Assembly: GCA_000934665.2 (NCBI GenBank)
Contig: KZ538817.1
Span: 112,644-132,643, forward strand
DNA: 20,000 nucleotides
DNA from: Catajapyx aquilonaris
Lineage: Eukaryota
Direction of reading: 5' to 3'
Below, in pieces: positions 1-20,000 of this stretch (its first letter is position 1; each line of letters opens with the position of its first letter). Both the position numbers and the translations under genes were made by a program. The notes below the pieces were generated by a model, which was given only the letters and a program-made list of their open reading frames with translations, did no database searches and had not been told where the DNA came from.

Positions 1-1632
1 AGGATTCGGATCTGAAAGGTACGCGGATTTGAACAGTTTTTTGGCGGTTTTTCCGCGCGGGGTTGGCAACGCAGACGCAGCACGAGGCTAATCTGGCGGG
101 CATATCAATCCGAAGAGTGGACCATGCAAGTCAATCCTGTTTGTCGCCTGATATTGTTTTGACGTATCGAATGAGAATGTTGCGGTTATGTGGTGTCTCA
201 ATATTAAGGCTATTTATAGTGCGGTGATGACTGGAGGCTGCGCTGAAATAGGTTACTTGAGATTAGTAGTGTAATCCACTCTGAGAGCCTGATTAGCGGG
301 TGGTAAGGATAACGTGGATCTCGAGTGAGATTAAATGCGCAGTGGTATATTCTGCTAGCTTTCGTGGTGCATATAGATGCAACTTGCGATAAATATTCCG
401 ATTTTTCCGCTGTCATTACATCGTGCGTCACTTACGAGACATTGGAAGGCACGCAGTTACATTGATTTGTTTTAATATTCACGTTTCACCTACAAGTGAC
501 CCTATAAGTACGGGTGGTGAGAAATGTGCGCACTTGTCGGACCTAGGCTCCGTGACATATACTGAGACGCAATTAGCCTGTAGGCCTAGTTGATTTTGTC
601 GATCTCTAATTCATTATGTAGCTAGTGGCACACACGTACGCAATGGGGGTCATTATGCGAAACCTCAGTTGCTGTTGATTTTTACACCCATATTTATTTG
701 AAGCTACAAGATACGAATTGCAACATGAAACTACTCCGGTGCAAATGCCAATTGATAGCAAAATTTGTAAGCCAATATTACATCAACTTGATTGTGCTTG
801 CATCCCCTATAATCATCAAATCCGGAAAATCCAAACCGTAGAAATCCATCCTCGACACTCGTCTCTCCTTCTCCAAATCGATCACCTTCGACATCGACCT
901 GCTGCGGCTGCATCGGTCCTTCCCAATTTCTGGAACAAATGAGCCCTCGCGCAATTGCCGGGTCGGGAAAGCTCAGTGATTTGTTCCGGGTTTGGGATGT
1001 CGCCGGTGGCGTTAATTCTTGGTTAGGCAAGAGTCGACATTGACACTCGGCAGCAGCGACGGTTGGGAGAGAGAAGCAAGGACCCCGTGGGCCATCAGGT
1101 CCTCCCTCCCCTTTCACGTGCACCCAGTGATGTTTGCCAATTAACGCGCCTCGTGTCCTGTCCGTACTCCCCGGCCCCGCATTGATTTAAGAGCAGAGCG
1201 AAGGGTGCACGACAGGAAGATGTATAATTTATGTTGGGCAAACCGCAGGTCGACGCGCTGACGTCGACGAATAATTGGGAATGAAAAGCTGCGTGAACGT
1301 CGTCGCCCCCGTGTTCGGCAGCCCACCGTCCTTTTTTGCCACCGGTACGAAAGGTTGAAATGTTCGCCGGACAGGCTTCATGTGGATTATTTAGGAACAC
1401 CCCTGAGCCCAAACTCGCCAGAGATTTTACAAATGTAATCGCGGTGGGATGCTAAGTGTTCCGAATTAGCTATCAATCCGTGCCTACCCTTTTCCCCCTC
1501 GGTACCATCCAAATCGATGGGCATGCCCGACAGGGTGCTTAGGACCTACTCAAATTTGGGACAGCCTCTGGATTTTTCATCAACAATAGCCAGTATGCAG
1601 GTGAAGTCAACCTGTTTTCTTGTTTTTTTCAG

Positions 1633-1850
1633 CCCTGGGCACGGAAGCGGCGTCCTCGTGGCGTTCGGAGACTCCGGAGGACCAGACGTCATTGTCCCCG
1701 GGCAGCTCCTGTGCCACTCCCAACAGTACCACCGATGCCCCCGAGGCTGAGCTCAGCTTCACCATCGGGGTCACCGAGGCCACACCTTACGCATGCCAAT
1801 TCTGCGACAAGGCCTTCCCCCGACTCTCCTACCTCAAGAAGCACGAGCAG
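1633..1850 (+). CDS. ZNF423: Oaz/ZNF423 first visible coding exon
   Basis: tttttttcag acceptor (phase 1); (A)[14 protein letters not shown]...[21 protein letters not shown]; donor gtgaga at 1851. Confidence 0.88.
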
Positions 1851-4800
1851 GTGAGAGAGCCCTTGAACAAACTGGCAAAAAAAATATATAGGTCAAAAAT
1901 TTGTTCCTCTCTTGGTTCTTATTGGGAGGAAGAATCTCTTACTCGAGGCGTGGATCTGAATGGCCGGACGGATTTACATAATAGAAGCGCTGTCGTGCGG
2001 ATTCACGATGCTGGGCGATGATATCACGTCATTCCGGGAAGAGTTTGTTATTCAGGGGAGTTGCAAGGGCAGTCTTAAGTAGGTGCTGATAAATGGGGGG
2101 GGCTCGACAGGAATAATATTTCCAGAGTACATTGCGCACACGATGTATGTGTTCTAATACTGGACGTCAGTACCGCAGATAAACAGCTTAGGGTATATTT
2201 AAGGTCTATTTTGACATCATGGCTAATCCGTATCGAACGATCTTTTCTTCGCAGACCCACAGTGACCAAATGCCCTTCAAGTGCGACTTTTGCAACCGTT
2301 TGTTCAAGCATAAGCGGAGTAGAGACCGGCACCTGAAACTTCACACCGGGGACAAAAAGTACCGGTGTCCTCACTGCGAGTCGGCATTCTCCAGGAGGTA
2401 GGCGTTGTCGATATCGATCTATCAGAAAATGCTCGAATTGGTTTCGAGGTACAAACTTCTGATATTTTGCAGCGACCACCTGAAGATTCACATGAAAACG
2501 CACGACAACCAGAAACCCTTCCAATGCACTGTTTGCAATCGGGGCTACAACACCGCTGCGGCCCTCACGTCGCACATGCAGAACCACAAGAAAGAGTCCA
2601 GCACTCCAAGCCCAGGACCCTTCAGGTGTCTGCAGTGCACCGCCACGTTCGGAACCGCCGAAGAGTTGCAGGTACGCACGGTATTAAGATGCTGTTGTCA
2701 CCGAGGGGATGGCCGGTCTTGTCACTGTGCCCGTGATGCTTTATAGTCGCACATCCAGATACATCGAGATGGTAGTCCTGCTGCTTCACCGCACAAGTGC
2801 GAGAAGGTACCTACACCGTCGCCTCACCACCAAATCCGAGACCTGCTGCCTTTCCCCACGCCGAAGCTGGCGTGCATATACTGCACCAAGGACAGCTTCA
2901 CCACCATGGAAGCCCTCCAACTACACGTGCAGGCCATGCACGGTAAGCTCACCATACGGAGCAGGTCAGAGCAGATTGGGAACTAGTCTTTCGTTTCAGG
3001 TCCGCTTCTAAATGGCGACTTCAGCGAGTTCGCTCGGTGCCACATGACCGGCAGCCCGCTGATGTCTCCGTCCCCAGGACTATGCCCCTCCCTGGGCAGC
3101 CTGGGGCTGGGGCTGTTGGGCCCAGGGTCGGGCGGGAGCAGCAGCGCGGGTGGGGCAAACCTGCCCTTCTCCTGCGACTTCTGCACCATGAAATTCGGTA
3201 GCCTCCAGCTCCTCCAAAAGCACACGCTCACCGTGCACAGCCTGACCAGCCTGATCGCCAAGTCCAAAGAGAACGTCTTCTGCGCCCAGTGCGCCTTGGC
3301 CTTCCCCAGCGCCACCGCCTTCGCCGAGCACTTCCTTCTGTTCCACGGCAACAACAAGGGCGCCCAGGGGCTGCCCCCTCCGCCCCAGCTCAAGCCCACT
3401 GATCTCAGCAAGAAGAGCACCAAGTCCGAGAGCCCCGACAGCTCCTCGGGAGGACCGCCCAGCAAGAAGAGCAAGTCGGACGGCGGGGCTGCTGCTGCCG
3501 CCAGGGAGTCCGGGTCGGCCTCCACCAGCGGTACGGCCACCCCTCTCCTGCCGCCCCTGCCTCCGCCCCTGGGCGGGTTCGGGCAGTACCAGCACCCTGG
3601 CACCCTGCTGTGCAACCAGTGCAACGCGGCCTTTCCGGACTTTGAGTCGTTTCGTACCCATCTGAAGACCCATTTGGACGAGGTGGTGCACAAGTACGTG
3701 TGCAGCGAGTGCCGAGGGGAGTTCTCGTCTGAAGAGCAGCTGGACTCGCACGTGGTCACCCATTACTTGGCCACGGCCACCGAGTACGGGTGCCAGTGCT
3801 GCCTGAAGCTGTTCGGCAAGCCGGACGAGCTGCAGAAGCATCTGATGGACATCCATGCGCATCACTTGTACCGGTGCTCCCTCTGCAAGGAGATGTTCGA
3901 CTCCAAGGTTTCCATACAGGTCAGTGCGATGTTTTCGCAATTTTGTGGCTCTTACGACTACTTGGGGGGGTTGCATTTGGGTTGCCAAGATCGCCGGTAT
4001 TTATTTTTGAACTGTGTCAGTGGCCTATTGTAAGTTATATAGAGTACGTTGCTGGCCAGATATATCCGGAAAGTAAACTAGGCAATAGCAATAAAGGCTG
4101 GAATTTGAAAAATTGAAGATGGAATGTACTGAATTTTATCATGTCGCGACCGCAACCTGAAAAATCACACGAGTGATGGGTAGGCTACATGCCAGGTTCA
4201 CACATGTAACAATGAGGTGGGGTTAAATGTGACGGAATACTTACTTCAGTCACTCATGCGCAGTCCCAATGGTAGATCCATGTCTGTACGCGGAAGTCAA
4301 GTGCGCATGAGTGACTGGAGCGAGTAATAGGTCATATTCTACCCCCGTCCCATTGTTGGATCTTTCTCCTGTGTATAGAGAACCATACAGAAACTTTTCA
4401 TCGAACAGTATTAATATCTAGTCACCGATGCATTTACTGGCACCGTGGCACATAAGAAAATTTTAATAATGACATGTGATTACGTAATGTAGCAGACATG
4501 TACAGTGAAACCGTCACCGATTTTGGCAATGAAATGTAATGGATTAATGCGAGTACAATCTCAGCCGGCGGAAAGTAATGGTCGTAGTTTTCAATTGGCA
4601 GTAGAATACCATTCAGCACATCATCTTTATGTAGGCTATACTGTCGATTGGAGAGGGAAATAATTATTGGGAAACAATCAATAGAGCCAGTCTTTTTTTC
4701 GCTGTTTCTTCAAACCCCACCATCATCTTTATCGGCAATTAATGCCACATGCGATGGTTTTCTGACAGAAACAGTAGCGTGCCATACTTTCCGACATATT

Positions 4801-7492
4801 GCGCTTCGAGCGAATGATGAAGTCCTTATTGGGCATAATGCAATTTGTCCGAAACACTCCCATCATGTTTCAGAATCATTGGTACAATCGTTTCGCTCCA
4901 TATTCCAATATCAGTCAGATCAGTATATCAGTGTTGTAGAACCAGAGTGCACATTTGTCCATATCTCACGTGCAGGTCCACTTCGCTGTGAAGCACAGCA
5001 ACGAGTGCCGGCTGTTCAAATGCACCGCGTGCAGTTCAGTCTTCCGGTCGGAGATGGAGTTCCAGCTCCACGTGAAGGTGGCCCACCTCCGAAAAGCCCA
5101 GCCCTTCCGCTGCCTCCTGTGCAACGCCAGCTTCGGTGCCGAAATGGAGCTCCAGTACCACCTGACCACGCACCAGAAGCAGTTCCAGTGCGCCCTTTGC
5201 GACGACGCCTTCCACGTGGAGTTCCTCCTGGACAAGCACATGCAGAGCAGGCACAGCGGAGGAAACGCAGACCAGGACCAGGTCTCGTCCGATCCGGAGA
5301 ACCTGTCCGTCACCGCCGCCAGCACCAGCACCAGCACCAGCTCTGTCGGAAGCCCCTCCAAAAGCGGGAAGACGCGGAACGGCGGGGCAGGCGGCGGCGG
5401 CGGGGTGGCTTCCACTAGCGCCGGCGCCTCTACCAACGGGGCTCCGGCGTCTTCCGGTGGTTCCAGGAAGGACCCAAAGTGCGACATTTGCGACCGGATA
5501 TTCGGGTCCGACTCGGAGTTGGCCTCGCATCGGAAGCAAATGCACAACATCAAGGGCGGAGGAGGCGGTGGGTCCAGCCAGAAGAGCCCTCCTGCACTGA
5601 GTCTGCACTGCGCTTACTGCAACGAGAACTGCAAGTCCAGAACCGAGCTGGAGAACCACATGAAGACCCACCAGTCTGGTACTGGGAAGCACAAGTGCAA
5701 CATTTGCGACGAGGTCTGCCCCACTGCCACCATCCTGGCTGAACATAAGCTGACTCACTGCAAGGTAAATTTGATTGAAACACTGAGGGGGTTGTCATGG
5801 GTTTACACGGGCGTCGTTGTTGTTGGGATCCACCAATCAGCAAAAATGCCACATCTGCGATGCAGATACGGCATTTTTCCAATGGAGCAGACTGTGGATC
5901 CCAGCCTCAGCTAAAGCTTGATTCGTGGTTTTATTTGCTTGGAATCGGGTCTGATTTTTACTCCTGCTCAGGATCTGTACAATCCGGATCGGTACCAATT
6001 TCCCGGAGGCTGCACTGCCTTTCCGTTGATGCTGGAGGGTTGCAGACCTACCAGGGGCACCCGAAAGCGTAGAGCTGCAACCCGCAAGCATCAACTGACG
6101 CCAGAGCAGCTGGTACGTAAGTGTCCTTTTAGGTCTCTGGGGATTGTCGGAAACCTGGGTAGGCTGTCCGTTTGTGTCCCACTTACTCGCTGCACAGTCA
6201 CTTTTTGCTAAAACTGGAATTGGCACTTGAACTCACAACTGTAATTACGTGAAAAATGACTGTGCATATTCATGGGTGTTGACCTCCGTGTCCGCTCGCA
6301 CATTGACACTGTATCCTCCGACTTTCAGGTTATCTCTGGGAGTACATGTACGGCCTGCAAGCAATCCCTCAAGAGTGAGGACCAGTTCTACACCCACCTG
6401 CACCAGCACGGCAGCAGCAGTACCTCCAGCAGCAACACCACGCCTGGAGGCCTTCCCCTCCCGTGCGTGGTATGCCGCCAGACCCTGATGTCCGAAGTGG
6501 AGGTCCGTATGCACGCCAAGTTTCACACCAAGAACGCCGCCGAAGAGCGACACTCCCAACAGCCGACGTACCCTTGCTGCGTGTGCCTGAAGCAGACCGA
6601 GGGCCAAAACCTGATCCAGAATGGGATGCCCAACAGCTTCGTCTGCAAGGAGTGCTTCCATCCTCCTGTGGCCACCACTCCAGAGGAGAAGCTGCTGAGG
6701 TGCCAGGACTGCGCCGTCAAGTTCGAGACCGTCGCGGAGCTGGAGCGTCACCTTCTCTTGCACAAGAAGACCTACACCTGCATCAAATGCCAGAGAAGCT
6801 TCGAGACGGAGGTGGAGATACAGATGCACGTGGCCACTCACTTGCTGACCGAAGGGAGCAACCACGAGTGCCGTCTCTGCCGACAGTTGCTGGACACTCC
6901 TCTGAAGCTGCAGTGCCACCTGATTGAGCACACGTTCGAGGGCTGTACCGGATTCGCGTGCTACCTGTGCAGCGCTGTCTTCACCGCGGCCGCAGCCTTG
7001 CAGCAGCACATGTTGGAGCACGGGCTGGCTGCCAGACCTTACGACTGCTCTAGGTGTCGATTAAAGTTTTTCTTCAGGGCTGAACTTGAGAACCACGTGT
7101 TGGGCCACGGAGATATGTCCGGAGTAGGGGTAAAGTGTGGGGTGTGTTCTGACGTGTTTCCTACGTCTGCTGAGATGCAGCAGCATTGTTTCCGGACGCA
7201 TTCGGCATCGGAACTGAACGGAGCAGGTGCTGAGGAGGAGTTTGCGTGTCCTGGTTGCAACCGGAGATTCCAGCACAAGGAGCAGCGCAAGGCTCACATG
7301 AAGTCTCATAGGGCATGTGGCAAGGCGTTCCGGCGACGGAGGAGGGCTCAGAACAAGGTGGCGGGTGACAGCGATGGTGTTGCGAGTGCTGTCGAAGACG
7401 AAGAGGATGGCGAAGCAGCCAAAGACAATTCGCCGTCTCCTGAAGTCAACGGCAAACAAGAGCGGGAAGTCAAACAGGAGGAGGAGACGTGA
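1633..7492 (+). CDS. ZNF423: ZNF423/ZNF521 (Oaz/Roaz) family multi-C2H2 zinc-finger transcription factor, spliced, 5'-partial; join(1633..1850,2255..2397,2473..2671,2747..2942,3000..3919,4976..5764,6329..7492)
   Basis: Spliced translation [80 protein letters not shown] closely resembles the ZNF423/521 N-terminal fingers. [42 protein letters not shown] and [19 protein letters not shown] are also family-typical. All six introns are GT-AG with matching phases; TGA at 7490-7492. No start exon was identified in the window. Confidence 0.95.
2255..2397 (+). CDS. ZNF423: Oaz/ZNF423 exon
   Basis: ttcgcag acceptor; [47 protein letters not shown]; donor gtaggc, phase 2. Confidence 0.93.
2473..2671 (+). 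CDS. ZNF423: Oaz/ZNF423 exon
   Basis: ttttgcag acceptor; (S)[21 protein letters not shown]...FGTAEELQ; donor gtacgc. Confidence 0.92.
2747..2942 (+). CDS. ZNF423: Oaz/ZNF423 exon (absent from the ORF track in this frame)
   Basis: tttatag acceptor; SHIQIH completes the preceding finger, then ...[25 protein letters not shown]; donor gtaagc, phase 1. Confidence 0.9.
3000..3919 (+). CDS. ZNF423: Oaz/ZNF423 exon
   Basis: tttcag acceptor after a 57-bp intron; five complete C2H2 fingers plus the start of a sixth, ending [17 protein letters not shown]; donor gtcagt. Confidence 0.93.
4208..4357. repeat. Diverged ~150-bp inverted repeat (old MITE-like) in an Oaz intron
   Basis: Perfect 16-bp core CAGTCACTCATGCGCA (4247-4262) pairs with 4302-4317; imperfect pairing extends to AACAATG (4208) and CATTGTT (4357). 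Confidence 0.65.
4976..5764 (+). CDS. ZNF423: Oaz/ZNF423 exon
   Basis: tgcag acceptor; [10 protein letters not shown]...AEHKLTHCK; donor gtaaat. Confidence 0.94.
5824..5903. repeat. Imperfect hairpin in an Oaz intron
   Basis: TGGGATCCAC/GTGGATCCCA outer stem; inner AAAAATGCC-AC-ATCTGC-GAT-GCAGAT-AC-GGCATTTTT (5842-5878). Confidence 0.55.
6329..7492 (+). CDS. ZNF423: Oaz/ZNF423 last coding exon
   Basis: tttcag acceptor; [10 protein letters not shown]... with the C-terminal finger cluster, two extra fingers and an acidic tail; TGA 7490-7492. Confidence 0.93.
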   Translation, partial: VISGSTCTACKQSLKSEDQFYTHLHQHGSSSTSSSNTTPGGLPLPCVVCRQTLMSEVEVRMHAKFHTKNAAEERHSQQPTYPCCVCLKQTEGQNLIQNGMPNSFVCKECFHPPVATTPEEKLLRCQDCAVKFETVAELERHLLLHKKTYTCIKCQRSFETEVEIQMHVATHLLTEGSNHECRLCRQLLDTPLKLQCHLIEHTFEGCTGFACYLCSAVFTAAAALQQHMLEHGLAARPYDCSRCRLKFFFRAELENHVLGHGDMSGVGVKCGVCSDVFPTSAEMQQHCFRTHSASELNGAGAEEEFACPGCNRRFQHKEQRKAHMKSHRACGKAFRRRRRAQNKVAGDSDGVASAVEDEEDGEAAKDNSPSPEVNGKQEREVKQEEET

Positions 7493-7845
7493 ATGTGTAC
7501 ATAACATCCCCAACCCTACCCACACACACTTATAAATGGCTCAATCGTGTTCAGTAGAATCTGTTTTGGGAATGTACTTATGGAAAATTATACACTGCAG
7601 CAGGTCCTCCTTATTTCTCTCTCAATTTGAACTGCGAATATTTTGGGGACCAAAATTTGTACATAATGAGTAGGAGGTACAGTACATGACGGTGCTCTTG
7701 TTTTTTTGTTTAAGTTTTTTTAGGATAGTACAAAAAATGTTGCTAGTTGCTCATGTGGTGAGGTGATTTCCGAATTGAATTTCCAAGTCTAAAAAAAATA
7801 TTATATTAGCCTTCCTCCCCACACACACCCTCTCTCTGCAACTGT

Positions 7846-7851
7846 AATAAA
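7846..7851 (+). terminator. Candidate polyadenylation signal AATAAA of Oaz (alternative at 8521-8526)
   Basis: AATAAA about 350 nt after the stop codon in AT-rich sequence; usage unverified. Confidence 0.4.
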
Positions 7852-8710
7852 TAATAATTATAATAATTATTATGTAAAAGGAGTAGGGTAGTTTTGAGTT
7901 TATGCTGTAGATATGTCACAAGAAGCTGATTTGTATACGTCAAAAAATAAGCAATACCTGCATTATTGTAAAGTAAGAAAAAATGAAAGAAAAAAACAAA
8001 AAAAAACATTCCAATCAGCTGTTGGAGGTGTTGGTTCCTATATGTTTACAAAAAGTAATGAGTAAAGATCGTTGGAAAACATGTCCGCATTTTTCTGCTG
8101 AAATATTTCCTTTCAGTCCCTGCGTCGTCCACCCGGATATTTTCCCTTTTGGCATATTCATTTCATTTGCAACAGGCATTTTGCATCAGAGTAATTATTG
8201 ACTTATAATCGGTAGCAATTATTGTTTCAAGAAATTTGCTATCCAACAACAAATTATTAGAAAATATACCATATTAGAAGAGTCTTATTACATGGGTTTT
8301 CGGAACCAGTAGCTACCTTACGTTTGAGAAGGCACTTGTTTACGACTCAAAGCTAAACATAGCAATGTTCTAGCTCTAAGTCAATATTTGAACTGCAATA
8401 CAACAAGGTAAGGTTGCTTTAAAAGACACACCATCGCATGTTTCCGTCATCTAGAAGCCTACCCCCAAGGCGTTAGATGACTTGAACCGAACACATTCTA
8501 GCAGTTCGTACAGTACACCTAATAAAGCTGCCTACAATGTTAAAGCAACATTAGATCACGTCTGTTGCTAAAAGTATACAGGTGGCCGCACTGTCCAAGT
8601 CCCTTGGGGAGAAAAGTCATGTGCACCCCAACAATCAGTTATTTTTTAAACATATACATTTCCTAGCTAATAATGCTTTTGAACTGCATTAGAACGACAT
8701 AGTCCTCTGT

Positions 8711-8810
8711 TCAAAATGGGCGCGTGGAATGGTCCTGCGGCAACCCTGCTTTTCCCTCCCCGATCCTCCCCCTCCCGCCGACTCCCTCCCCCTCCACCTA
8801 AGATGGCGGC
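8711..8810 (+). promoter_or_regulatory. Putative HEATR3 proximal promoter/5'UTR with YY1 (Pho) motif AAGATGGCGGC at 8800-8810
   Basis: Exact YY1 consensus plus CAAAATGG near 8712, in a C-rich, CpG-rich stretch about 120-215 nt upstream of the ATG; typical of housekeeping promoters. Confidence 0.55.
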
Positions 8811-8927
8811 CTCCTGAGCCAGACCACGCTGAAGCTACGTCTCTCTGTCGTCCCCGTGCGGTTCGTGCAGGCCGCCGATCGTTGACCGCGACTGGGAGGA
8901 GGGATCCCCTTGACGTGGTGGTGGGCC

Positions 8928-9095
8928 ATGGGAAAGGTGAGGCCGCAGAGGAGGAGGTTCAGGGGAGCGTCGTCGGACCCCATGGGCCTCGGAGGGAGAG
9001 GAAGAGACGACGGGGAGGAGGAGATGATGATGGAGACTGGGAGGAGGAGAGGCCCTGCCACACCAGGGGACACGGTGCAGGCCGTGCTGGACCAG
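8928..9095 (+). CDS. HEATR3: HEATR3 exon 1
   Basis: gccATGg; MGKVRPQRRRFRGASSDPMGL...VQAVLDQ; donor gtgaat, phase 0. Confidence 0.85.
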
Positions 9096-12000
9096 GTGAA
9101 TTATCACAACAATTATTGTGCATGCCCTGTGTTGGGACCGGTTGGGATGGGGTCCGCCAGTGTGATACCATCTGGTGACATGTTTCTTGGGTGGGTGCCA
9201 AACACTGGGGTGATTCAGTGCAGATTGGGATGTGTGTTGCAATCTGGTGTAAATTTACCTGCAGGATGTGCGCATGGATATAACCACTTCCCACTGGTAT
9301 TCCGTAACATTTGGTCAGGTTGGTGCGCAGGCCACACTTGTCGCATGGTCGAAGAGTGCGGTTGCACCTGAAAATGTTAAATTGTGAGTGATTCAGATGG
9401 CTTAGGACTTGAAACTAAAATGACACTATGGGCAGGAAGTACCAAACTTAGTAAAACAAATCCATCTATATTGCGCTCGTTATTAATTTATTGTTGACAG
9501 AAACTAACCAAAAATTGATAAGCGCAATCCCGCCACGTTTGTTTTACAGTGGTTTTGTGCTCCCTGCTTGCTCTTAGCGTGTAAGAAAATATGTGCAAAT
9601 CTGGTCACAATCCAAGGACATTTTTAAATAGGCAGTTTGGATATGCATGCAAGATTTGCAGTAGTTTTGACCTACCAAATAATTATTGTAAATGAAAAGC
9701 TGAATACTACTACTCTGGGCTACTAACTTGTCAGATTGGAGTATGAGCCATAAGGTCACCTCAGGCCAACAGAAGTTTTTTGGATGGAAAGTAAGGGTTT
9801 ATTGCACCTGTTCCCCCCTCTTCCGGTGCCACCCATTCCCTAGATTATTTACCCTCCACTGTCCTCCTTATTACTGTAGACCCTTTGCGTCATTCAGTAG
9901 GTAGGCCAGTATGGAGCTGAACTGACAACTCGAGCCAGGCTTGATTGTCGGAGACGAATTCCCCATTTCTGCACCCTGTGCCATTCCTCCCCAACAGCCG
10001 AACCTGGCCAACGCTCTGACACGTCAGCTGCACACGAGTCAGCTTGTAATACTCATTAGTTGACTTCAAAACTTTCAAGTGTTTTACTTTGGCTTGCTTT
10101 GCATCCATAATTTTCTGCAACACAATACAATCCAGGCTTACTTCCCAAATTATGCAATCAAAGTGAGCCCAAAAAAAAAGTTCTCTCCCTTCCTACCACT
10201 TCCATCTTTGTCTTGCCCAATTATTTTTTTAAACAATTATGTGAATTGAATGCGTACTGTCCTGACCTTGACTTTTTGGCATTCAAGTTTTCCATAATTT
10301 TCCGTCTCATCAGTAATGCAGAAGAAAAGTGTGCATTTTATAAAGGACTGCATGGAGTAGTGTTTACAAGAAAAATCTGCAAGAATGTTTAATGTACTGA
10401 TTTTTATTCTTTTTGAATGCAGTTGCAGAGAGCTACTGTTGAGGATAAGGAATGTGCTCTGAGCACCTTGGCACAGCATGTTGAGTGCCCCGAGTTCCAG
10501 GAGGAAATACTAAAGCATGACTTGATCCGCATTGTTGCTCCATTGCTGCTGGACACTAGCTGCCTAGTGCGACATGTTGCTGCTGGAGCGTTGAGGTAAG
10601 TTATAGGTCATACGATATGTGATTTGTTCTGTCAAATGCAAAACTATTTCTTTTTTTGCTTGAAGGAACTTGAGCACATGTGGAGAAGAAATGTGTGACT
10701 TCATGGTGGAGCAGGATGTCATGACATCCATTGTCGTGCTGCTGAAGCGGGTAGGTGAAAATTTCGTTACTGCAAGCATGTGGCATTCATGTTTAGATTG
10801 TGGTGATAAGGAGTGGGCTTATTTGTAGTGATTATTTGGTGATATGCTCAGAAATTCGTCACAGAAGTCTCAATTGTAAGGATTGCAGTTTTCCCCTAAG
10901 GGAGTTATGCTCTCATTGGTATAATAATTGGTGCAATAAGATCCTCTCTCATTATTATGCAACTGAATTACAATTAATGACTTTGTTTTATCATTTATGC
11001 TGAGGCAATGCTTGGTTCTCATTGTATTAATTTTTAATTTTGTATGCTTTTTATCATAACCACAACTAACAGCTAAATGTGAGTAACATGTATAGATGAG
11101 GAAACATTACAATTAATAAACAGGATTGTGGAATGAATTTTCAAATTAAGTTGCTGAGGATATTTTAATTGGTTCATTAATTTTTCTGTTGCAATATCAC
11201 ACCACAGCACAGGCATGAAGATTATTTTGAGCACTTGATACATGATCTTCTCTTATAACCCTGTAATGCCCCTTGGGTCATATCTGGCACACCATTTAGT
11301 GCAATTTGGCACTTACAGGAAATATAAAAATTGCAAAAATTGCACTAAATGGTGTGCCAGATATGACCCAGTGGGCATTACAGGGTTTTGCATGTGTGCC
11401 TTCTATTGAGCACCATCTGTAATATATGGGCTGAAAATTTTTTTATCCTCTCTCACTGGATCTGTTTCATCAGAACTCAAGACCTTATTAGTGCATTTTA
11501 GGGAAGCTGGCAATATGAGAAGCATATGATTGCAAAGTCTTGTGACGAAGGTTTCAAAAGGTAAAAACAACAATTGGCAGATCGCTAAGTTCCGCTAGTT
11601 GGCGCCTATTATCAGGAATTTAGGATCATAGCACTGACAACATTAAATACATGAAAGGTCATTTCAAGCATAGCAAGTTTTATAATTGAAGATGTGAGTT
11701 ACATGCCATGGCAGGTACAGGATGTTGACTGAATTCCTGAAGAATGAGGGCATGGGCAAATATTTGCGACGATTTTTTCTGCAATGTTTGAATAAAAATT
11801 TGACAAGTACAACCAATGACACTCATTGTGTCAGGGTATATCATCAAGTTGGACATTTACGAATAACACTGCAAAAGATTTGCCACACTCTGCATTAGAT
11901 GCGACTGGCGCGAAAATTCAAATGGAGATCCTCCTCTTCCCAAATATTCATCCAAAAGACGCCCCACCGTGATTCGTGACAAAAGCGGGTAGATAGGAGG

Positions 12001-15000
12001 AGACATGGCATTGTGGCTGTACGTATCTGGCAAGCCCCCTGAATTTTAGGGGGGAGAGAGAGGGTAGGTAGGTGGAGCAAAGGCGTCCCCGTTCGTCTTG
12101 GTAGGCGCTCCAGAGGCGTCTCCGGAGACGCCTGGGCTCGTTGGGGCGAGGGGCTGAAGACGGACTGCTTGCTTTGTGCGCCCGGATGAAGATTTAGCGG
12201 CGCAGGGAGCCAGCTGACGGCCTCGCGAATTACAGGCACCAGCCATTTGCGAGAACCCCCCCCTTTTCGCCATCCTTCCCCCCTTCTCCCTTCTGGGGGT
12301 TGCCGAGGAAGAGAAGGAAGACTACGCCGCAGACTTGGTCAAAATGAGGGATTCCAGGCTAGGTGCAAATGAAGGGTACGGGTAACCACCCCCGTGGAAT
12401 TATGCAAATGTATGCTGCGGAACGTGGGGGAAAAGGATGAGGCACGTGGGTGGGGAGCTGGTGGACACTTGTTGATTCAGCCTGGACCCTGGTCAAGCTG
12501 AGCCCGGATTTGTCGCAGAGAGTGGAGGAATCGTCCCCCACCTTGCTCTTGGGCGATATAGTATATGGTCATTTGATCCTAAAATCCGGTAATAATTATG
12601 ATTGTCTTTTCAACAGGTCTTATGTAGTGCAGGAAGGCGAAATAGCGGCAGGGTTGGAAAAGGAATGCATAATGGATGAAGCCAAATCCTCTTTCCAGGT
12701 GGGCAATGGAGGCGGCATTAGATTAGCAGATCTCCAGGTGGGGGGAGAGGCCGGGGAAGCAGGGGAAGGTCTGGGGAAAGGAGTACAAAATAAAATATGA
12801 AGTCATCACAAGAGGCGGGGTGGAGGCTAAGCCTTGAACCTCTGCAGGCTTGCAGAGGGACTTGCCAGGGGGGGCAGGGTTAGGTGGGCGGTGGGAGAGA
12901 GAGGGAGGGAGGGGGGGGGAGGAAATTGATGTCTCAAAACAGCTCGAAATCTCAGAGCTCATTTCCCAGTTTCAAAATCTTAAGATTTATGCAAAGCAAG
13001 TAAATGCATTTCAGGGCTCGCATATGTAAATCCCAGTCCCTTCAGTCATTAATGGCGTCCCTGGGGTCCCCTTGAGATCTGCTCTGCTTAACTTTAATGC
13101 GTTGGGAGTTGGCGGTTCCCTCAGCATAAGGATTAAACTCGCGCCTGCACTTCATCGCACTCCTCCGGGACTTTCTCCGGGACTCCGGGAAGTATTTCCT
13201 CCTTTTCTCCGGCCCCCAAGATTTAAGTTTGGGAATCCGCGCCGGGGACACACAAAAGAAAAAGGGAGGGAGGGCAAGATAGAGGAAATATTGTAATCCA
13301 GTCATATTTATATACCGGGGAAAAGGCACCTGAGAGGCCCTCCTCCCATCCGAATAAGGGGGGGCACTGGGAGGCGCTTTTTCCGGGAGGCGTTGCTGAC
13401 AGGGCCATCCGGAGTGATGGCTCCGGGGCTCATTCCCAGCTGATGGATGGCTCCCACGCAGCCTCGCCCGGATGACTCGTTGCCCCGGAATATGTCATTT
13501 TCGGCGCGAGGAGACCGCTCCTGGGAAATGAAACGCTGTTATGGATTTTAGTCCAAAGAGGAAAAGATGGGGCCCGGACTCGCCTGGGGATGCCCCTCAA
13601 GCCCTACAGCTACTCTCTTCTCTTTTTCCGGCCTCTCGCTAGCGCGGTCTCTTATGGGAGAGAGAGACCCCGGCATGAATGCATGGGGAAGGAGAGAGGG
13701 GGAGAGATAGATGGCGTGACAGACTCCCGACGGACCAATGCACTCTAATCAACCCCCACGTGATGAAGTGGTCATCTACACCGCCGGTGCAAAGACAGCC
13801 CGCAAGGACTGCTGGATGTGTCAGGTGCTGGCTTGCATGCTGCTATCAGCTTCCAGCCAGCCAATGCGGAATGGCAGGGGATTTTTTGGGGGGAGGACGT
13901 AGAAAACTACGCGTTTCAAGCTTTCGGGACGGGGTTTTTTTGGGGGGAAAGGGGTAAAGGTGGTAATTGGGTGGATTGGGATTGATGTTTTTGCGTGGTT
14001 TGTTGCCTGGTTTGGAGAGAAAGGGACTGGTTGGCGTGACGGGGCGTGACTCTTTCCTGCTGCTAATGGCCGGATGATTGAACTTGGGAAGTATTTGCGC
14101 CTCCAGTTTAGGCAACTGGCAACGCGTCTGCCGGTTGGGTTGCCCGAGTCTCAGGATAGCGATGGCCCGTCTCTATACTCTTGTAATGATCTGTAGCCGT
14201 TGTTTGGCGGCTCAAAGTCACATCAGAAAAGGGGGAGATGGATATGTTTTACCAATGTTGTACCTCTTGAACACTTTGGTGTCTTTGATATTATTTGCAA
14301 ATCTTCTATGGGGACCGTCCGGTACGAAGCGCAGGAAATTCATATATTCGTTCAATTTAGAATTAGGAACAAATTCAGTGTCAGTGAGATTTTCATATGG
14401 TAAATGGTATATGCAGCATATTCTTATGCAATTTGTGGTTCAGTTTTAAAGATAATGGAACTTCTGCCGTTGTGAAACTAGGAACATTAAGCTCGTGAAG
14501 CCAGTATTAGATTAGTAAGTAGGTCAGAATGGGTCAACTTGTGGGTTGCTGTGGCGCATATAGGTTACGTATTTGGAGAGTTGCTGAGACGCATTTAGAC
14601 CAAAACGGGGATTTACTTGGAATGTTGTAGTCGCTTGGTCTTTTCACACTCGACTGCCCCAACAATAATTATAATCCGGAGAGCAATTAATACCGTCTTA
14701 ACACATAGTGGGGTAGGAGACAACGTGGGTCTATTTGAATATTTCTGGAGCTCGGAGAAGGTGCGTGTGGCGGCCATGATTAGCCCACCTTTCCGAGCCA
14801 TATTTCGGAGAAGAACCGGCGGCGGGCCCTGATATCCGGGCTATGATTCACAGCCGGCTTCAGCTAATGTTTTCAGCGACCTTGCCTCATAACTCGGCGG
14901 CGTAATTTTCTATCCAGCAGCCACTAGCCAATTGCGCCTTAATTAGAGAGAGGCTGCTCTGGAATACTCGCACATTGTCTCGGGAGACAGGGGGTGAAAT

Positions 15001-18000
15001 ACAGCATCCTGTTATGCAGTATTGATGGTCTTGTGGGAAGGAGACTAATCCTTGGCAGTGCAATCCCGAGTCTGTATACCGGTTGCAGGGTGGAGGAGGA
15101 GGAGGAGAAGGAAGGAGGGGGATGTAATTTGACGCTGTGTTTAACTTGAGCTTCTGCGAAAATCCCAGGGTGGAGCCGAAGGGAGGGGACTTAGGAGGAA
15201 GTGGGGGTCAAAAGAGGAAGAAGATGGAGGAGCAGAAGAGAGAGGACACAAAGTCCTGTCTGTCCCCCTGCTGCCGCCTACAGCCCCCACCCCCTGCTGT
15301 GTTTGCGCGGACCCGTCCCCAAGTGCCAGATTGATATTAGGATTTCGCGACTGTTGAGAGAAACTTAGGCGAGATGCCTAAGGTATAGAGCGGTATAGAC
15401 CTTGGGGGGCTGAGGAGGAGGTAGGTGGGCGGGTGTAGGGACTGCTGTGTATATTTTGGCGGGGATTACTGAAACTTCCGGAAACAGCAGCCAGTTACTT
15501 CTCCGTAATCCCTGAGCAACTGTTAACCGTGTAATACCAATGTAAACCTGATTATACGAGGGGTATTCAGGAAGTTTGTTTGCGTCCCCAGAGCTCCGGA
15601 TGCATGCTTAGCGAGTTGATTGGAGAGCTCGGTATCCTTTTCGCGGGGGGGCGCCAATCCATTTGCATAAGTGTGGCTAATATTCCGGGAGAAATACCGG
15701 AAGAGTGGGCAACCCGGGCTGTCCCCTTGACTGGAGAGAGGGGCCACCCTCTGGTGGCGGTGCGACGTCTTATTTGCTATGCCCCAGGCGCGCAAACAGT
15801 GTGACCCTCGCGTGACATCTGTGTGTTGACTGAAGGTTGCTGCTCCTTGAAAGACTCATCAGGATGAGGTGGCCGTTCCTCCTGAGGGAGAGAGGGAGGG
15901 AAATGAAGAAGGGGGCAGAGGGCGGCTCCAACTCCGGGTGCAAGTTCCTCTTCTTGGCCCTACTTCTCTTCCTCGCCCGCTTGCTTAAACATTAAGCTCC
16001 TTCCTAAGTATCTTAAATGAACTCCCGTGGCACGTCGCTGCATTTTCATTTTCTGGGCGCAATCCCTCGGGACTAAAGGATTTACATTTCGTGAGTTTGC
16101 CATGAGACATGGGGCTTTGCACAGAGCAAAGGTGATTACGCCCCACAGCTGCAGCGAACTTGTCGGATGGAACTTATGGGAAACCTCCATCTCGCCCCGG
16201 CATTCTTTATCATTCTCTCAAATCAGAGGGGAGAGAGAGANAGAGAGAGAGAGAGAGAGAGTGAAAACTAGAGATTTAATGTTGGGGCTTAGCCTGGAGA
16301 TGGGATAGAAGAGGAGAGGGTCTCTTGGGGTACCCCCCCAGAGTGGGCCGGTGAAGGTTTTTGCTGACAAGATAGCAGACGCCAGGCGTTTTCTTATTCT
16401 CAGGTTCCGCAGACCATCACATACGGTGAGGAGGCTGGAGGGATTATCTTGGAAATCACCGCAGCCTTCCTCTCTTCTGTCTTCTCCTCTTCTGGCCCTC
16501 TCTCTTGCTTATGTGTAATTACGCTAATGCTGCCCAGGGAAAATTGAAATGCAGGCGATGTGGGAGGAAGGCAGCGCAGCTTTCATCTAAGTTATCTCCT
16601 GCCATTGCCACGCTGGGATGGAGATGGACCCCTCCCTCCCCTGCCTCCTCTGCTCTACCCCAATGCAGCTTCCAAAAGCTGAGTTCTCAGCAAGTTGCCT
16701 GAATTATTGACAAACAATCCCCTACTCACCTGCAGTTGCTAAGGTGCCCACTTTTTGGATGGAGGCAATTAGCAGAAACAATTTGGCTGTGTCAGACTCC
16801 CAGGGCCACAAGACGAGACTGGCCACGTTTCTGGTGCACTCAGACATAATTACATTTGACTTTGCAGGAGTATACCAACTGGGCGCCCAAAAGCAAGGCA
16901 GAGGATGGCCACGTCAAGTCTGACATGCAGACAGACACTTTCATCCAAGTGGTGAACCTCCTGTGGAATCTTTGGTATGCCTTTTTGTGGCTTTGGTCGC
17001 ACCCCAATTTGGAGTGATGCCTGCTTTGAATTTCAGTGAGAGTAACGATGTGGCTGTTAAAGTGTTCAACAGAGAAGGACTCCTTCCAATACTATTCAAC
17101 TACCTTGACACACAGGCAGCAGACCCAGAAATTCGCCTCTCTGTTGGTAAGCACCTATTAATTAGCTGCATAACTTTGTAGTTTAATCCTCCTCCTTTCA
17201 TTTCAGCACATTGTCTTCACACTGTGACAGAAGATAATCCAGGGTTGGTGGAACAGGGCAGTGAGTTGGAGAGCCACCTACAAAAGCAATTGCAGGTGGA
17301 AGGAGATTCGCCAGACATGCTGCTGTACAAGATTCTCATAACGGGGATAATCTTGAACTTCAGCTTAGGCAAGGCTGCCACTCTGGATCCCATTCTCCTG
17401 CACCAGGTGGTTGCTACAATTGCAGGCACGTTAGAAGAGGACCACAGACGAAGGGCAGGAGACTTTGCAGGATGTATTGTCTCTAGTGGTAGAAGTGGGG
17501 ATGCATTTCTGAAGAATGGGAAGGGTGAAGATATGGATTTGGATGGGACAACTACAAAGAAGTTTTTGCAAGCAGAGAAGGAGCTTGACCACTTTCTCAC
17601 TTCACAGCAGATTGCAGTGGAGACATTGACCAACTTGTGTTGCACTGAAGGTAAAGGGTCCTATATAAAATAATAACATCATTTATGCACTGGCTCTATC
17701 ATTGTTGGCAAAAATAGTACCACATGGAGCAGGGAAGAGGGAAAAGTAGATTTTTGTGAAGTAAGGGATTCTGCATAACATTGATAAGTAGAGAACGGAT
17801 TTCTAGGTTCTAAAAAACCCTCAAATAGGTCGGCATTTAGGCCCTGAAAACAGTCAAAATAGGCTCTTAAATAGGCACTATAAATCAAGCTGGTTCTAAT
17901 TTATTTTAATTTCTACACAATGGAATTTTGCAGCACAGTAACAAACTAGCAGTTATTCCATATTTTCGTTGGTTAATCGCAGCTTTTCGGCGACAGTTAA

Positions 18001-20000
18001 GATGCTCCCTCACGGGGAGCCGATATGGCCGATAGAAAACCCGTCGGGCCGAATGTAGCAGCTTATTTAACGGCTATTAATAACAGTTATTTCGAGTCGC
18101 AATAGCTGTTAACGGCATATTACCTGGGATCTTGCCGATCAACCGCTTCTTCGCTTGTCACAAGTTGAAGTGGGAGGGATTCCTTGAACGGAAAACCTGC
18201 AAAACTCTCGAAAATCTTACCGAATGGCGTGAAAAAGGTCGAAATAGGCACTAATAGGTGCTAATAGGCCATTTAGGTCCCAACACCCGAAATAGGCATT
18301 TTTAGGTTCTATAAAACTACGATTTTTTAGGTCCTTGTGTTAGGAAACGGATAGATATTTTGGTTCCGGTGTTCTGCCTACAAAAGAAAAAGTAGGTAAA
18401 AACCTAGAAATCCGTTCTCTATTGATAAGTGTTAGGAATATCCAGGAATCCCTGAAATCTGGAGTGATTTGTGTTTACACAAGATTCCGTAAAGTAGTTG
18501 GACCAAATCCAGATGCTTGAATGGGATGGAAGTGTGGCTGTTAAATTGATTTCTCCTATTGCAATTAGCTAATTGGCTGCAAGTCACCCAGTTATCAAAG
18601 TAAAAAAAAAAAAGTATCTGTGAAATAACCTAGCTTGCAGAGTTGCTTAGGTTGTGGGATTGATGGGATTATCACTTATGGATGCGTACTCCCTGACAGA
18701 AGGTGACTCAGTCTCAGAGGAAGAGGAAGACTATAGTGATGACAACTTTAATGAGGGGGAACTGGACCATGACTGTACCTTGGATGACAAATTGCGACTC
18801 TGCATACCATCTGAGGTAAGCTCGCTATGGCCCAGTTGTATAAATGGTTTTTAGGAGAGCTCCCACCTGGCACTCTCTTACCTGCAGGGGCCCTCCTACC
18901 TCTATTTGGTATGCACTGGTCATGCGCTAACTGAAATCACTCCTACCCTTTCTGACTGGGAATTGTGCCTGGATATTGGGTCACTCTTTCAACAAAACTA
19001 TTATTGATAAAAACAGTGTCAAGTAAATTTTTACAGTGATGTGGAATAACATACAGATAGAGCTTACAACAACAAAATAAAGTAGGTATATTTCTGCAGG
19101 CTAGGCTAGGGACCCAACAGGCCTCAGGTATGATAGCATGTGGATTTCCGCCAGTCTTTATCATAGCTGGAAAAGACCACTCACAGATTCAAATGGTGGT
19201 TAGGAACTGCATTAGTTGAAGAAGTAGGCCTCAAAGCCAGCTAGTATGTTCCATCATTTCAATCACAGCAACCTTTGACATTCATAACCTGCACAAAATA
19301 GTTGTGCATGGCATATGACCTATCCTGAAACACCCTTTCCCATCTCCACCCTCGCACCAAAAACTTGTCCAATACTTGTAGAACTTGCAAATCTAACTCA
19401 GTTTTTTGCTGACTGGCTGTAGCTCAATAGTCAGCCATCTTCAATTTGGGTTGGCAGTAGAGAGTGGCATGTAGGGGTCAGGTTGAACCTTCCTAAGGCA
19501 AAGTCGCTCCCAGTAGGACAGGCTGGTGCAACAGAAATCCTCCTTGGGAGCTTCCCTACATGTATTATACATTTATATCATTTGCCCAAGTGTCTACCCA
19601 GTGTGAAACTTCATTTGGATTCTATGTTCCATTTTTCAGGTGCATGAAGCTGTTGTGAAGCATGACCTCATAAATAAGGTCTTGTGCAAGGCAAATCTTC
19701 CTGCAGAAAACAACATGAAGGTCTTGCAGGAAGATGAAGCAGGCCGCAAGGTGCTGGTGAAGCTTGCCACACTGCGTTGCCGTTCTTTCTTATGCCTGCA
19801 TAACCTGGTGGTCAACCTGGATGTGGAAGAACTAGGGGGAGCCCCACTGCTGTATGATGTGTGGCAGAATCTAAGCAGCCTGGTGTTTAAGCAAGGAGGA
19901 GCTTCCCTACCAGAAGAGGAGGATTCGGAGCTTCTGGAGGCTGCCACTTCAGCCATGAGAGCATTGGTGCAGAAACTGGCAGAGATGCAATGGAGTGACT
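8928..20000 (+). CDS. HEATR3: HEAT repeat-containing protein 3 (Syo1/symportin-like), spliced, 3'-partial; join(8928..9095,10423..10595,10666..10750,16868..16974,17037..17146,17207..17650,18700..18815,19640..>20000)
   Basis: Basic N-terminus [105 protein letters not shown] followed by an acidic loop; LDVEELGG...LEAATSAMRAL. All recall human HEATR3 motifs in the same order. Seven GT-AG introns with consistent phases; gccATGg context. Confidence 0.93.
10423..10595 (+). CDS. HEATR3: HEATR3 exon 2
   Basis: tgcag acceptor; LQRATVEDKECALSTLA...[10 protein letters not shown]; donor gtaagt, phase 2. Confidence 0.92.
10666..10750 (+). CDS. HEATR3: HEATR3 exon 3
   Basis: T-rich tract then aag acceptor; [28 protein letters not shown]; donor gtaggt. 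Confidence 0.9.
11257..11387. mobile_element. Short foldback/MITE, probably piggyBac-like
   Basis: 51-bp inverted arms (11257-11307, 11337-11387) with 2 mismatches and a 29-nt spacer. Ends CCCT...AGGG are flanked by ATAA and TTTT, a possibly degenerate TTAA target. Confidence 0.7.
11890..16810. promoter_or_regulatory. Putative intronic cis-regulatory island in HEATR3 intron 3
   Basis: Shift from AT-rich, CpG-poor to GC/CpG-rich sequence; no convincing ORF or TIRs; octamer, COE/EBF, Su(H), E-box and TAAT motifs. Function is inferred only; boundaries are approximate. Confidence 0.45.
16231..16261. repeat. (GA)n microsatellite containing an ambiguous base
   Basis: About 15 GA units with N at 16241. 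Confidence 0.9.
16868..16974 (+). CDS. HEATR3: HEATR3 exon 4
   Basis: tttgcag acceptor; EYTNWAPKSK...FIQVVNLLWNL(C); donor gtatgc, phase 2. Confidence 0.88.
17037..17146 (+). CDS. HEATR3: HEATR3 exon 5
   Basis: tttcag acceptor; [23 protein letters not shown]...RLSV; donor gtaagc, phase 1. Confidence 0.92.
17207..17650 (+). CDS. HEATR3: HEATR3 exon 6
   Basis: tttcag acceptor; (A)[11 protein letters not shown]...[15 protein letters not shown]; donor gtaaag, phase 1. Confidence 0.92.
17789..18421. mobile_element. Non-autonomous hAT-like DNA transposon (MITE), 633 bp, in HEATR3 intron 6
   Basis: Perfect 21-bp TIRs TAGAGAACGGATTTCTAGGTT (17789-17809; reverse complement at 18401-18421). Perfect 8-bp TSD TTGATAAG (17781-17788, 18422-18429). 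Subterminal AATAGG repeats; no transposase ORF. Confidence 0.9.
18700..18815 (+). CDS. HEATR3: HEATR3 exon 7 (acidic loop)
   Basis: cag acceptor (NAGNAG); (E)GDSVSEEEEDYSDDNF...LCIPSE; donor gtaagc, phase 0. Confidence 0.85.
19640..20000 (+). CDS. HEATR3: HEATR3 exon 8, continues beyond the window
   Basis: tttttcag acceptor; VHEAVVKHDLINKVL...CLHNLVVNLDVEELGG...LEAATSAMRALVQKLAE, open to the window end. Confidence 0.92.
   Translation, partial: MHEAVVKHDLINKVLCKANLPAENNMKVLQEDEAGRKVLVKLATLRCRSFLCLHNLVVNLDVEELGGAPLLYDVWQNLSSLVFKQGGASLPEEEDSELLEAATSAMRALVQKLAEMQWSD

Follow-up and report, generated by a model that had tools for sequence, protein, structure and literature searches.

Ancient pairs of a regulator gene and its bystander are an established class of gene linkage (accessible parts of PMC3514665 and PMC7530604), and regulatory blocks of this kind are predicted to feature long bystander introns with conserved enhancers (PMC3514665, same part). 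Islet-Scaper and Otx-Ehbp1, as covered in those portions of the two papers, have been traced in six to eight non-vertebrate species and come with tested enhancers and 4C contacts. The CAMP cut-off of the older study, as given in the part at hand, demands at most four intervening genes in at least four major lineages (PMC3514665), and the 156 ancient chordate block pairs of PMC7530604 draw on the 595 pairs of PMC3514665. Human ZNF423 is itself a named block target at 16q12 in the available section of PMC5585340; it is classed as trans-dev in Table S3 of PMC7530604, where a 197-kb gap is given for its HEATR3-side flank. The same table lists flanks of 582 and 666 kb for ZNF521, which has no adjoining HEATR3, as might be expected of a desert that remains once a bystander is lost.

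Here, we analyze an arthropod locus at which Oaz, the counterpart of ZNF423, is directly followed by HEATR3. The pair is real, orthologous and old; it is securely arthropod-wide and probably older than the arthropods. The window is a stretch of 20 kb that forms the end of contig C1570 (genome G000). As the original prediction had it, the two genes lie there in tandem, with the Oaz stop codon (TGA, 7490-7492) and the HEATR3 start codon (ATG, 8928-8930) both on the plus strand and 1,435 bp between them (Table 1).

Seven Oaz exons between 1633 and 7492, joined over GT-AG introns, yield an open zinc-finger frame of 1,208 amino acids. Contigs from run X1, which is not recorded as RNA and yet yields contigs that skip eight predicted introns exactly, leave out two of the six Oaz introns (75 and 564 bp) at the predicted GT..AG ends and cover 7026-7970 over the 3' end of the gene. 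Oaz does not begin at position 1633: the start codon lies about 97 kb upstream of the window at contig position 16,015, in an exon whose N-terminal MSRRKQ sequence is 93-100% identical to that of relatives. Further upstream exons, a finger exon near contig position 44,900 and another at 112,565, bring the span of the locus to about 104 kb with giant introns. The exon beginning with MLFKGNS (C1570 112,565-112,661) matches insect ZNF423 N-termini with 72-82% identity in tblastn and is the one with which some insect models start; it may be either internal or an alternative first exon without the MSRRKQ N-terminus. By pattern, 26 C2H2 fingers are counted when the shorter exon-4 acceptor is used, within the expected 20-30, and the RNA-supported acceptor adds back one finger as read from the sequence. 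The protein stops soon past the finger cluster that it shares with insects (exon 6329-7492), while a further C-terminal run of fingers, missing from the window, is present in the chelicerate models P0034 and P0381. The gene order on C1570 is CTDP1, mRpS17, CENP-L, Oaz, HEATR3, so that CTDP1/FCP1 (L016 1296-2615, L015 38-430) is the third gene upstream of Oaz. In human, chromosome 18 carries both CTDP1 and the paralogue ZNF521, which may be a remnant of one ancestral chromosome.

Eight HEATR3 exons from 8928 onwards encode an open frame of 521 amino acids that runs off the contig; the gene ends on the overlapping contig C5333. X1 contigs skip six of its seven introns (70, 6,117, 62, 60, 1,049 and 824 bp) at predicted GT..AG ends. 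A multicopy, CpG-rich insertion of 631 bp in intron 6 (17790-18420) is missing from C5333 and is therefore probably a polymorphic transposon. Past HEATR3, contig C5333 (L024 4229-6500 and 8600-9700; L025) carries a gene without Pfam match, a TSSK-like kinase gene (minus strand) and a Rab2-like gene, the latter two named by eye.

Table 1. Features of the Oaz-HEATR3 locus (window coordinates)
Feature	Position	Strand	Basis or remark
Upstream Oaz exon, terminal part	1..18	+	exon from contig 112,565 (MLFKGNS), donor GT at 19
Oaz/ZNF423 coding exon	1633..1850	+	open frame, AG/GT
Oaz coding exon	2255..2397	+	open frame, GT-AG join
Oaz coding exon	2473..2671	+	zf-C2H2; next intron spliced out in X1
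Oaz coding exon	2747..2942	+	acceptor supported by X1 joint
Oaz coding exon	3000..3919	+	open frame, Pfam match
Oaz coding exon	4976..5764	+	open frame, Pfam match, X1 contigs
Final Oaz coding exon including stop	6329..7492	+	frame, homologues, X1 contigs
Oaz 3' UTR (AATAAA 7846, 8521), spacer, presumed HEATR3 promoter and 5' UTR	7493..8927	+	promoter position inferred
HEATR3 coding exon 1	8928..9095	+	aligns from residue 1 with HEATR3 relatives
HEATR3 exon 2	10423..10595	+	open frame, X1 contigs
HEATR3 exon 3	10666..10750	+	open frame, X1 contigs
HEATR3 intron 3, 6,117 bp	10751..16867	+	spliced out in X1
MITE-like 132-bp palindromic multicopy element, intron 3	11256..11387	.	copies at 92-100% identity
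Candidate Oaz enhancer core: single-copy, GC-rich, CpG-retaining, non-coding	11851..16450	.	edges by eye from profile
HEATR3 exon 4	16868..16974	+	open frame, X1 contigs
HEATR3 exon 5	17037..17146	+	open frame, X1 contigs
HEATR3 exon 6	17207..17650	+	open frame, X1 contigs
HEATR3 exon 7	18700..18815	+	open frame, X1 contigs
HEATR3 exon 8, cut by contig end	19640..20000	+	PF25567 match; goes on in C5333

Best matches, trees and domains agree with the earlier assignment of both genes, each being a single-copy orthologue. With the last Oaz exon as query, 245 proteins were retrieved at E <= 1e-20; among the 120 of these that were listed, the given gene names are ZNF423 or ZNF521, ranging from chelicerates to sharks, and the other entries are generic or unnamed. 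Within the genome of this animal, the runner-up is a generic zinc-finger array (E 1.6e-20), and a second close Oaz copy was not found there. Arthropod Oaz is co-orthologous to vertebrate ZNF423 and ZNF521, and as a single arthropod gene for a multi-finger C2H2 protein, the window gene is an ordinary member of the OAZ family, which comprises Drosophila Oaz and the two vertebrate proteins (PMC2889900). Exon 8 of HEATR3 matches PF25567 (TPR_SYO1, E 3.5e-33) and HEATR3 relatives align with the model over its full length. Using this exon as query, a word-based search recovered no homologue among 891 candidates, and an unindexed one returned 147 relatives; the only other match in the own genome is C5333, a 98% overlap of the same locus that completes the gene. 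HEATR3/Syo1 is the import adaptor for uL18 and thus acts in ribosomal protein import (available parts of PMC9136880 and PMC10442235); the window gene resembles it in the TPR_SYO1 domain, full-length similarity and single copy and differs by its 6.1-kb intron 3, compared with 355 bp in the metagenome contig L061. In FastTree phylogenies of both proteins, the window groups with pancrustaceans but not within the winged-insect clade (support 97 and 98), a rough placement since a tick falls inside the Oaz clade; the Oaz tree includes family members only, so that the gene is placed without an outgroup.

Linkage in other animals was scored from scaffold lengths and from accession or locus-tag numbers as a proxy for coordinates in 16 named species with both genes among the matches; Haliotis was excluded from the count because its matches stem from different species. 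Oaz and HEATR3 are adjacent in four of the 16, two scorpions, a centipede and a cockroach, so that the expected linkage was recovered in chelicerates, a myriapod and an insect but not in the seven species with the genes on different scaffolds (Chamberlinius, Diploptera, Macrobrachium, Lottia, Saccostrea, Tachypleus and Limulus), some of which may reflect fragmented assemblies or, in the horseshoe crabs, unlisted duplicates. Centruroides sculpturatus carries the pair on a single scaffold of 751,789 bp with accessions two apart (XP_023231299 and -301). In C. vittatus, the 1,978-residue model P0381 (XP_067122192) starts with zinc fingers and continues with HEATR3 at residues 1332-1973, which implies the same order and strand as in the window. 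As the sole ZNF423-HEATR3 fusion among 137 proteins scanned, it is read as an annotation artefact of adjacency and not as a real fusion. The C. sculpturatus model P0001 repeats its C-terminal block, and both P0001 and P0381 look like artefacts of annotation or assembly. Numbers are consecutive in two annotations of the cockroach Periplaneta (XP_069681890/1 and -892; ANN_10220 and ANN_10219), and the pair corresponds to T1J283 and T1J284 in the centipede Strigamia. Two unionid mussels, counting as one lineage, have the genes seven locus tags apart on one scaffold (Sinanodonta ACJMK2_010433 and 010426; Potamilus CHS0354_009377 and 009384). The remaining three species share only the chromosome, with RefSeq accession gaps, which need not mirror genomic position, of 228 in Uloborus, 2,280 in Lycorma and 299 in the hemichordate Ptychodera.

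Among metagenomes, 18 Oaz loci were found, three of them with at least 5 kb of 3' flank; the other 15, with less than 5 kb beyond Oaz, are not scorable. The pancrustacean-like contig L061 holds both genes within 7.8 kb, with a whole HEATR3 on the strand opposite to Oaz and a Bax1-I gene between them, and from this convergent arrangement it follows that proximity outlived an inversion. Other genes occupy L047, where HEATR3 is absent from 9.5 kb downstream and 10 kb upstream of Oaz, and L056 ends without HEATR3. Tandem here and in the scorpion and convergent in L061, the pair is not arranged head-to-head with a shared promoter; the co-regulated head-to-head class requires a conserved 5'-5' orientation (PMC3514665, part at hand).

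The human pair was proposed as the counterpart of this arrangement. We take human ZNF423 and HEATR3 to be divergent, with HEATR3 on the 5' side of ZNF423 and hence on the side opposite to that in the window, and TMEM188 to be identical with CNEP1R1. The human order ZNF423, TMEM188, HEATR3, i.e. with one gene between, is confirmed by the accessible part of PMC2806267, but CNEP1R1 lies elsewhere in the genome analyzed here. It is located on the separate contig C5188, the upstream neighbours of Oaz being CENP-L, mRpS17 and CTDP1, and was therefore dismissed as a third member of the block in this animal. For lamprey, the available section of PMC5050428 places heatr3 near ca5 and says nothing on ZNF423.

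With 6,117 bp, intron 3 of HEATR3 is 4.6 times as long as the next HEATR3 intron and exceeds all 51 control inter-exon gaps (maximum 5,312 bp; 18 genes from three housekeeping families), gaps that may themselves conceal exons. The L061 counterpart (6991-6636) measures 355 bp, still the longest there (others 70-109 bp), and a large intron is thus not required for the link; an inverted repeat is seen in it by eye. The 132-bp palindromic element of the window occurs on both strands in 39 other contigs among 40 candidates scored and yields false miRNA matches in Rfam. Structured RNA in the intron was rejected, as all 11 sub-threshold Rfam matches fall on this element and none within the core. Likewise, a nested coding gene was discarded because all 54 open frames lack a Pfam family above the cut-off, a faint match (E 0.005) lying outside the core. 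The stretch 11,400-16,800 is single-copy save for a GA microsatellite in a search that skips very common words; with nothing else in the core matching elsewhere, a transposon origin was dropped.

It is established that CpG loss reflects gene-body methylation. The core of about 4.6 kb has a GC content of 0.52 and a CpG o/e of 0.67 without TpG excess, while HEATR3 exons and other intron stretches range from 0.13 to 0.42 (polymorphic insertion excluded) and the giant Oaz introns reach 0.77. The edges of the core were picked after viewing the profile, so its CpG p-value does not amount to a clean test. No chosen edges enter a Markov classifier, which scored nine of 12 intron-3 windows as Oaz-like versus none of five from other HEATR3 introns; its threshold, the 95th percentile of the held-out housekeeping windows (n = 49), was passed by about 40% of the held-out Oaz windows (n = 57). 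CpG alone is a weak marker, since several housekeeping genes among the controls show no CpG depletion (0.6-1.0). A single control intron was checked, and its CpG-rich part is a multicopy element. A 765-bp multicopy element with terminal inverted repeats of about 97 bp resides in a cullin intron (L029; C4:16,010-16,772). Repeats common to the core and the Oaz introns were not found, and comparison of the window with the 18 metagenome loci gave no conserved non-coding match beyond one at E 0.047; L061, the sole locus with an orthologous intron 3, is not a close relative and gave no match. X1 contigs do not cover about 12,000-16,700, which is no evidence either way.

The pair is missing from the 156 block pairs of PMC7530604: HEATR3 has no entry in that supplement, ZNF423 figures there just as general regulator and ohnologue, and ISL2=SCAPER was recovered as positive control. 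Neither gene appears in the part of PMC8851819 at hand or in PMC8809688, the latter searched without a positive control. Full-text searching, with subscription papers and big synteny databases mostly outside its scope, found no literature treating the pair as conserved, and the pair may be catalogued under gene ids. By the CAMP rule, arthropods and human fall within the cut-off, the mussels with up to six intervening tags miss it and the hemichordate is not near, giving two phyla on a strict count and three on a loose one.

How old is the linkage? Oaz followed by HEATR3 is very probably the ancestral arrangement of arthropods, given the tandem in a chelicerate and in this animal and the adjacency in a myriapod and an insect. 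That the genes were near neighbours already in the bilaterian ancestor and were locally reshuffled later appears somewhat better than an even chance and rests on human, with one gene between, and on the one mollusc lineage with seven tags. Linkage since the protostome-deuterostome split, as originally suggested, is partly supported, with arthropods, human and unionids speaking for it and the hemichordate, two molluscs and the list of ancient chordate blocks against it. The synteny may instead be restricted to arthropods, with the human and mussel proximities arising separately through shuffling within one shared ancestral chromosome. We consider this a serious minority view: no invertebrate deuterostome with the link was seen, the two Ptychodera genes having just a chromosome in common at their wide accession distance, Lottia and Saccostrea carry the genes on different scaffolds, the orientation differs in human, and the pair was picked out after the fact from many possible pairs. 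The mussel result, however, was a prospective test, and a distance of at most seven genes on a shared chromosome is expected by chance in about 0.6-1.8% per lineage, which comes to roughly 2-5% when all three mollusc lineages examined are counted. The link is loosely held, and several lineages lost it.

Present evidence suggests that the pair works like a target-plus-bystander block, for which it is a candidate: Oaz/ZNF423 is a developmental regulator, HEATR3 a non-developmental neighbour serving ribosomal protein import, and, in this genome, composition and length of intron 3 fit the enhancers predicted for bystander introns (PMC3514665, accessible part). Composition suggests the intron-3 core as a concrete candidate, and the chance that Oaz enhancers lie in this intron is, in our estimate, a little below even. 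The Oaz regulatory domain would then reach past the HEATR3 promoter into intron 3, the core would stay unmethylated and bind transcription factors, it would form a loop with an Oaz promoter at a distance of 12-17 kb or of about 110 kb, and intergenic breaks between the genes would be selected against as a result. The complete reading, i.e. an uncatalogued bilaterian block kept in tandem, convergent or divergent form because HEATR3 intron 3 carries Oaz enhancers, seen as an unmethylated single-copy island in a methylated gene, is tentative and receives a probability of about 0.25. Retention could also be passive, if the genes of an old pair are not tied to each other and seldom come apart because the spacer is short and the Oaz locus is large and intolerant of breaks; slowly rearranging genomes keep neighbours, and the core would be something else, for instance an element of HEATR3, an insertion that decayed long ago or a non-coding RNA nested in the intron. 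Rather unlikely in our view, this explanation agrees with a spacer of just 1.4 kb, with a link lost or unseen in ten of 16 species, with the short L061 intron and with the failure to find a conserved non-coding element, but it sits poorly with proximity in L061 that outlasts both inversion and gene insertion and with a core that is not repeated, whereas the CpG-rich part of the tested control intron is, and that lacks Pfam families and Rfam matches. Housekeeping promoters mark domain borders in flies. Similarly, the Oaz chromatin domain could end on its 3' side at an active HEATR3 promoter that is retained as an insulator, and HEATR3 itself would contain no enhancer; CpG retention indeed spans the whole Oaz locus and drops just past the HEATR3 start, and housekeeping CTDP1, mRpS17 and CENP-L likewise flank the other Oaz end. 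Such a boundary leaves the Oaz-like core beyond the promoter unexplained, and in L061 the HEATR3 promoter points away from Oaz; we rate this account improbable.

The pair joins, as a candidate, the few gene pairs linked for more than 500 million years, and a stretch of 4.6 kb is named as a candidate Oaz enhancer region. If the enhancer reading is true, the regulation of ZNF423, which partners with BMP/Smad and EBF, could be approached from an invertebrate, and regulatory blocks could be flagged by islands that retain CpG within methylated introns of bystanders, with no need for multi-genome alignments; the general model would stay unchanged. At the human ZNF423 block, the same orthologues have one gene between them, CNEP1R1/TMEM188, which is on another contig here. 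Unlike Islet-Scaper and Otx-Ehbp1, Oaz-HEATR3 is patchy outside arthropods, shifts in orientation, offers an enhancer candidate only and is off the list of 156 pairs. With these two pairs, as portrayed in the accessible parts of PMC3514665 and PMC7530604, it shares the combination of a developmental transcription factor and a housekeeping neighbour, deep linkage and, in this genome, a single outsized bystander intron.
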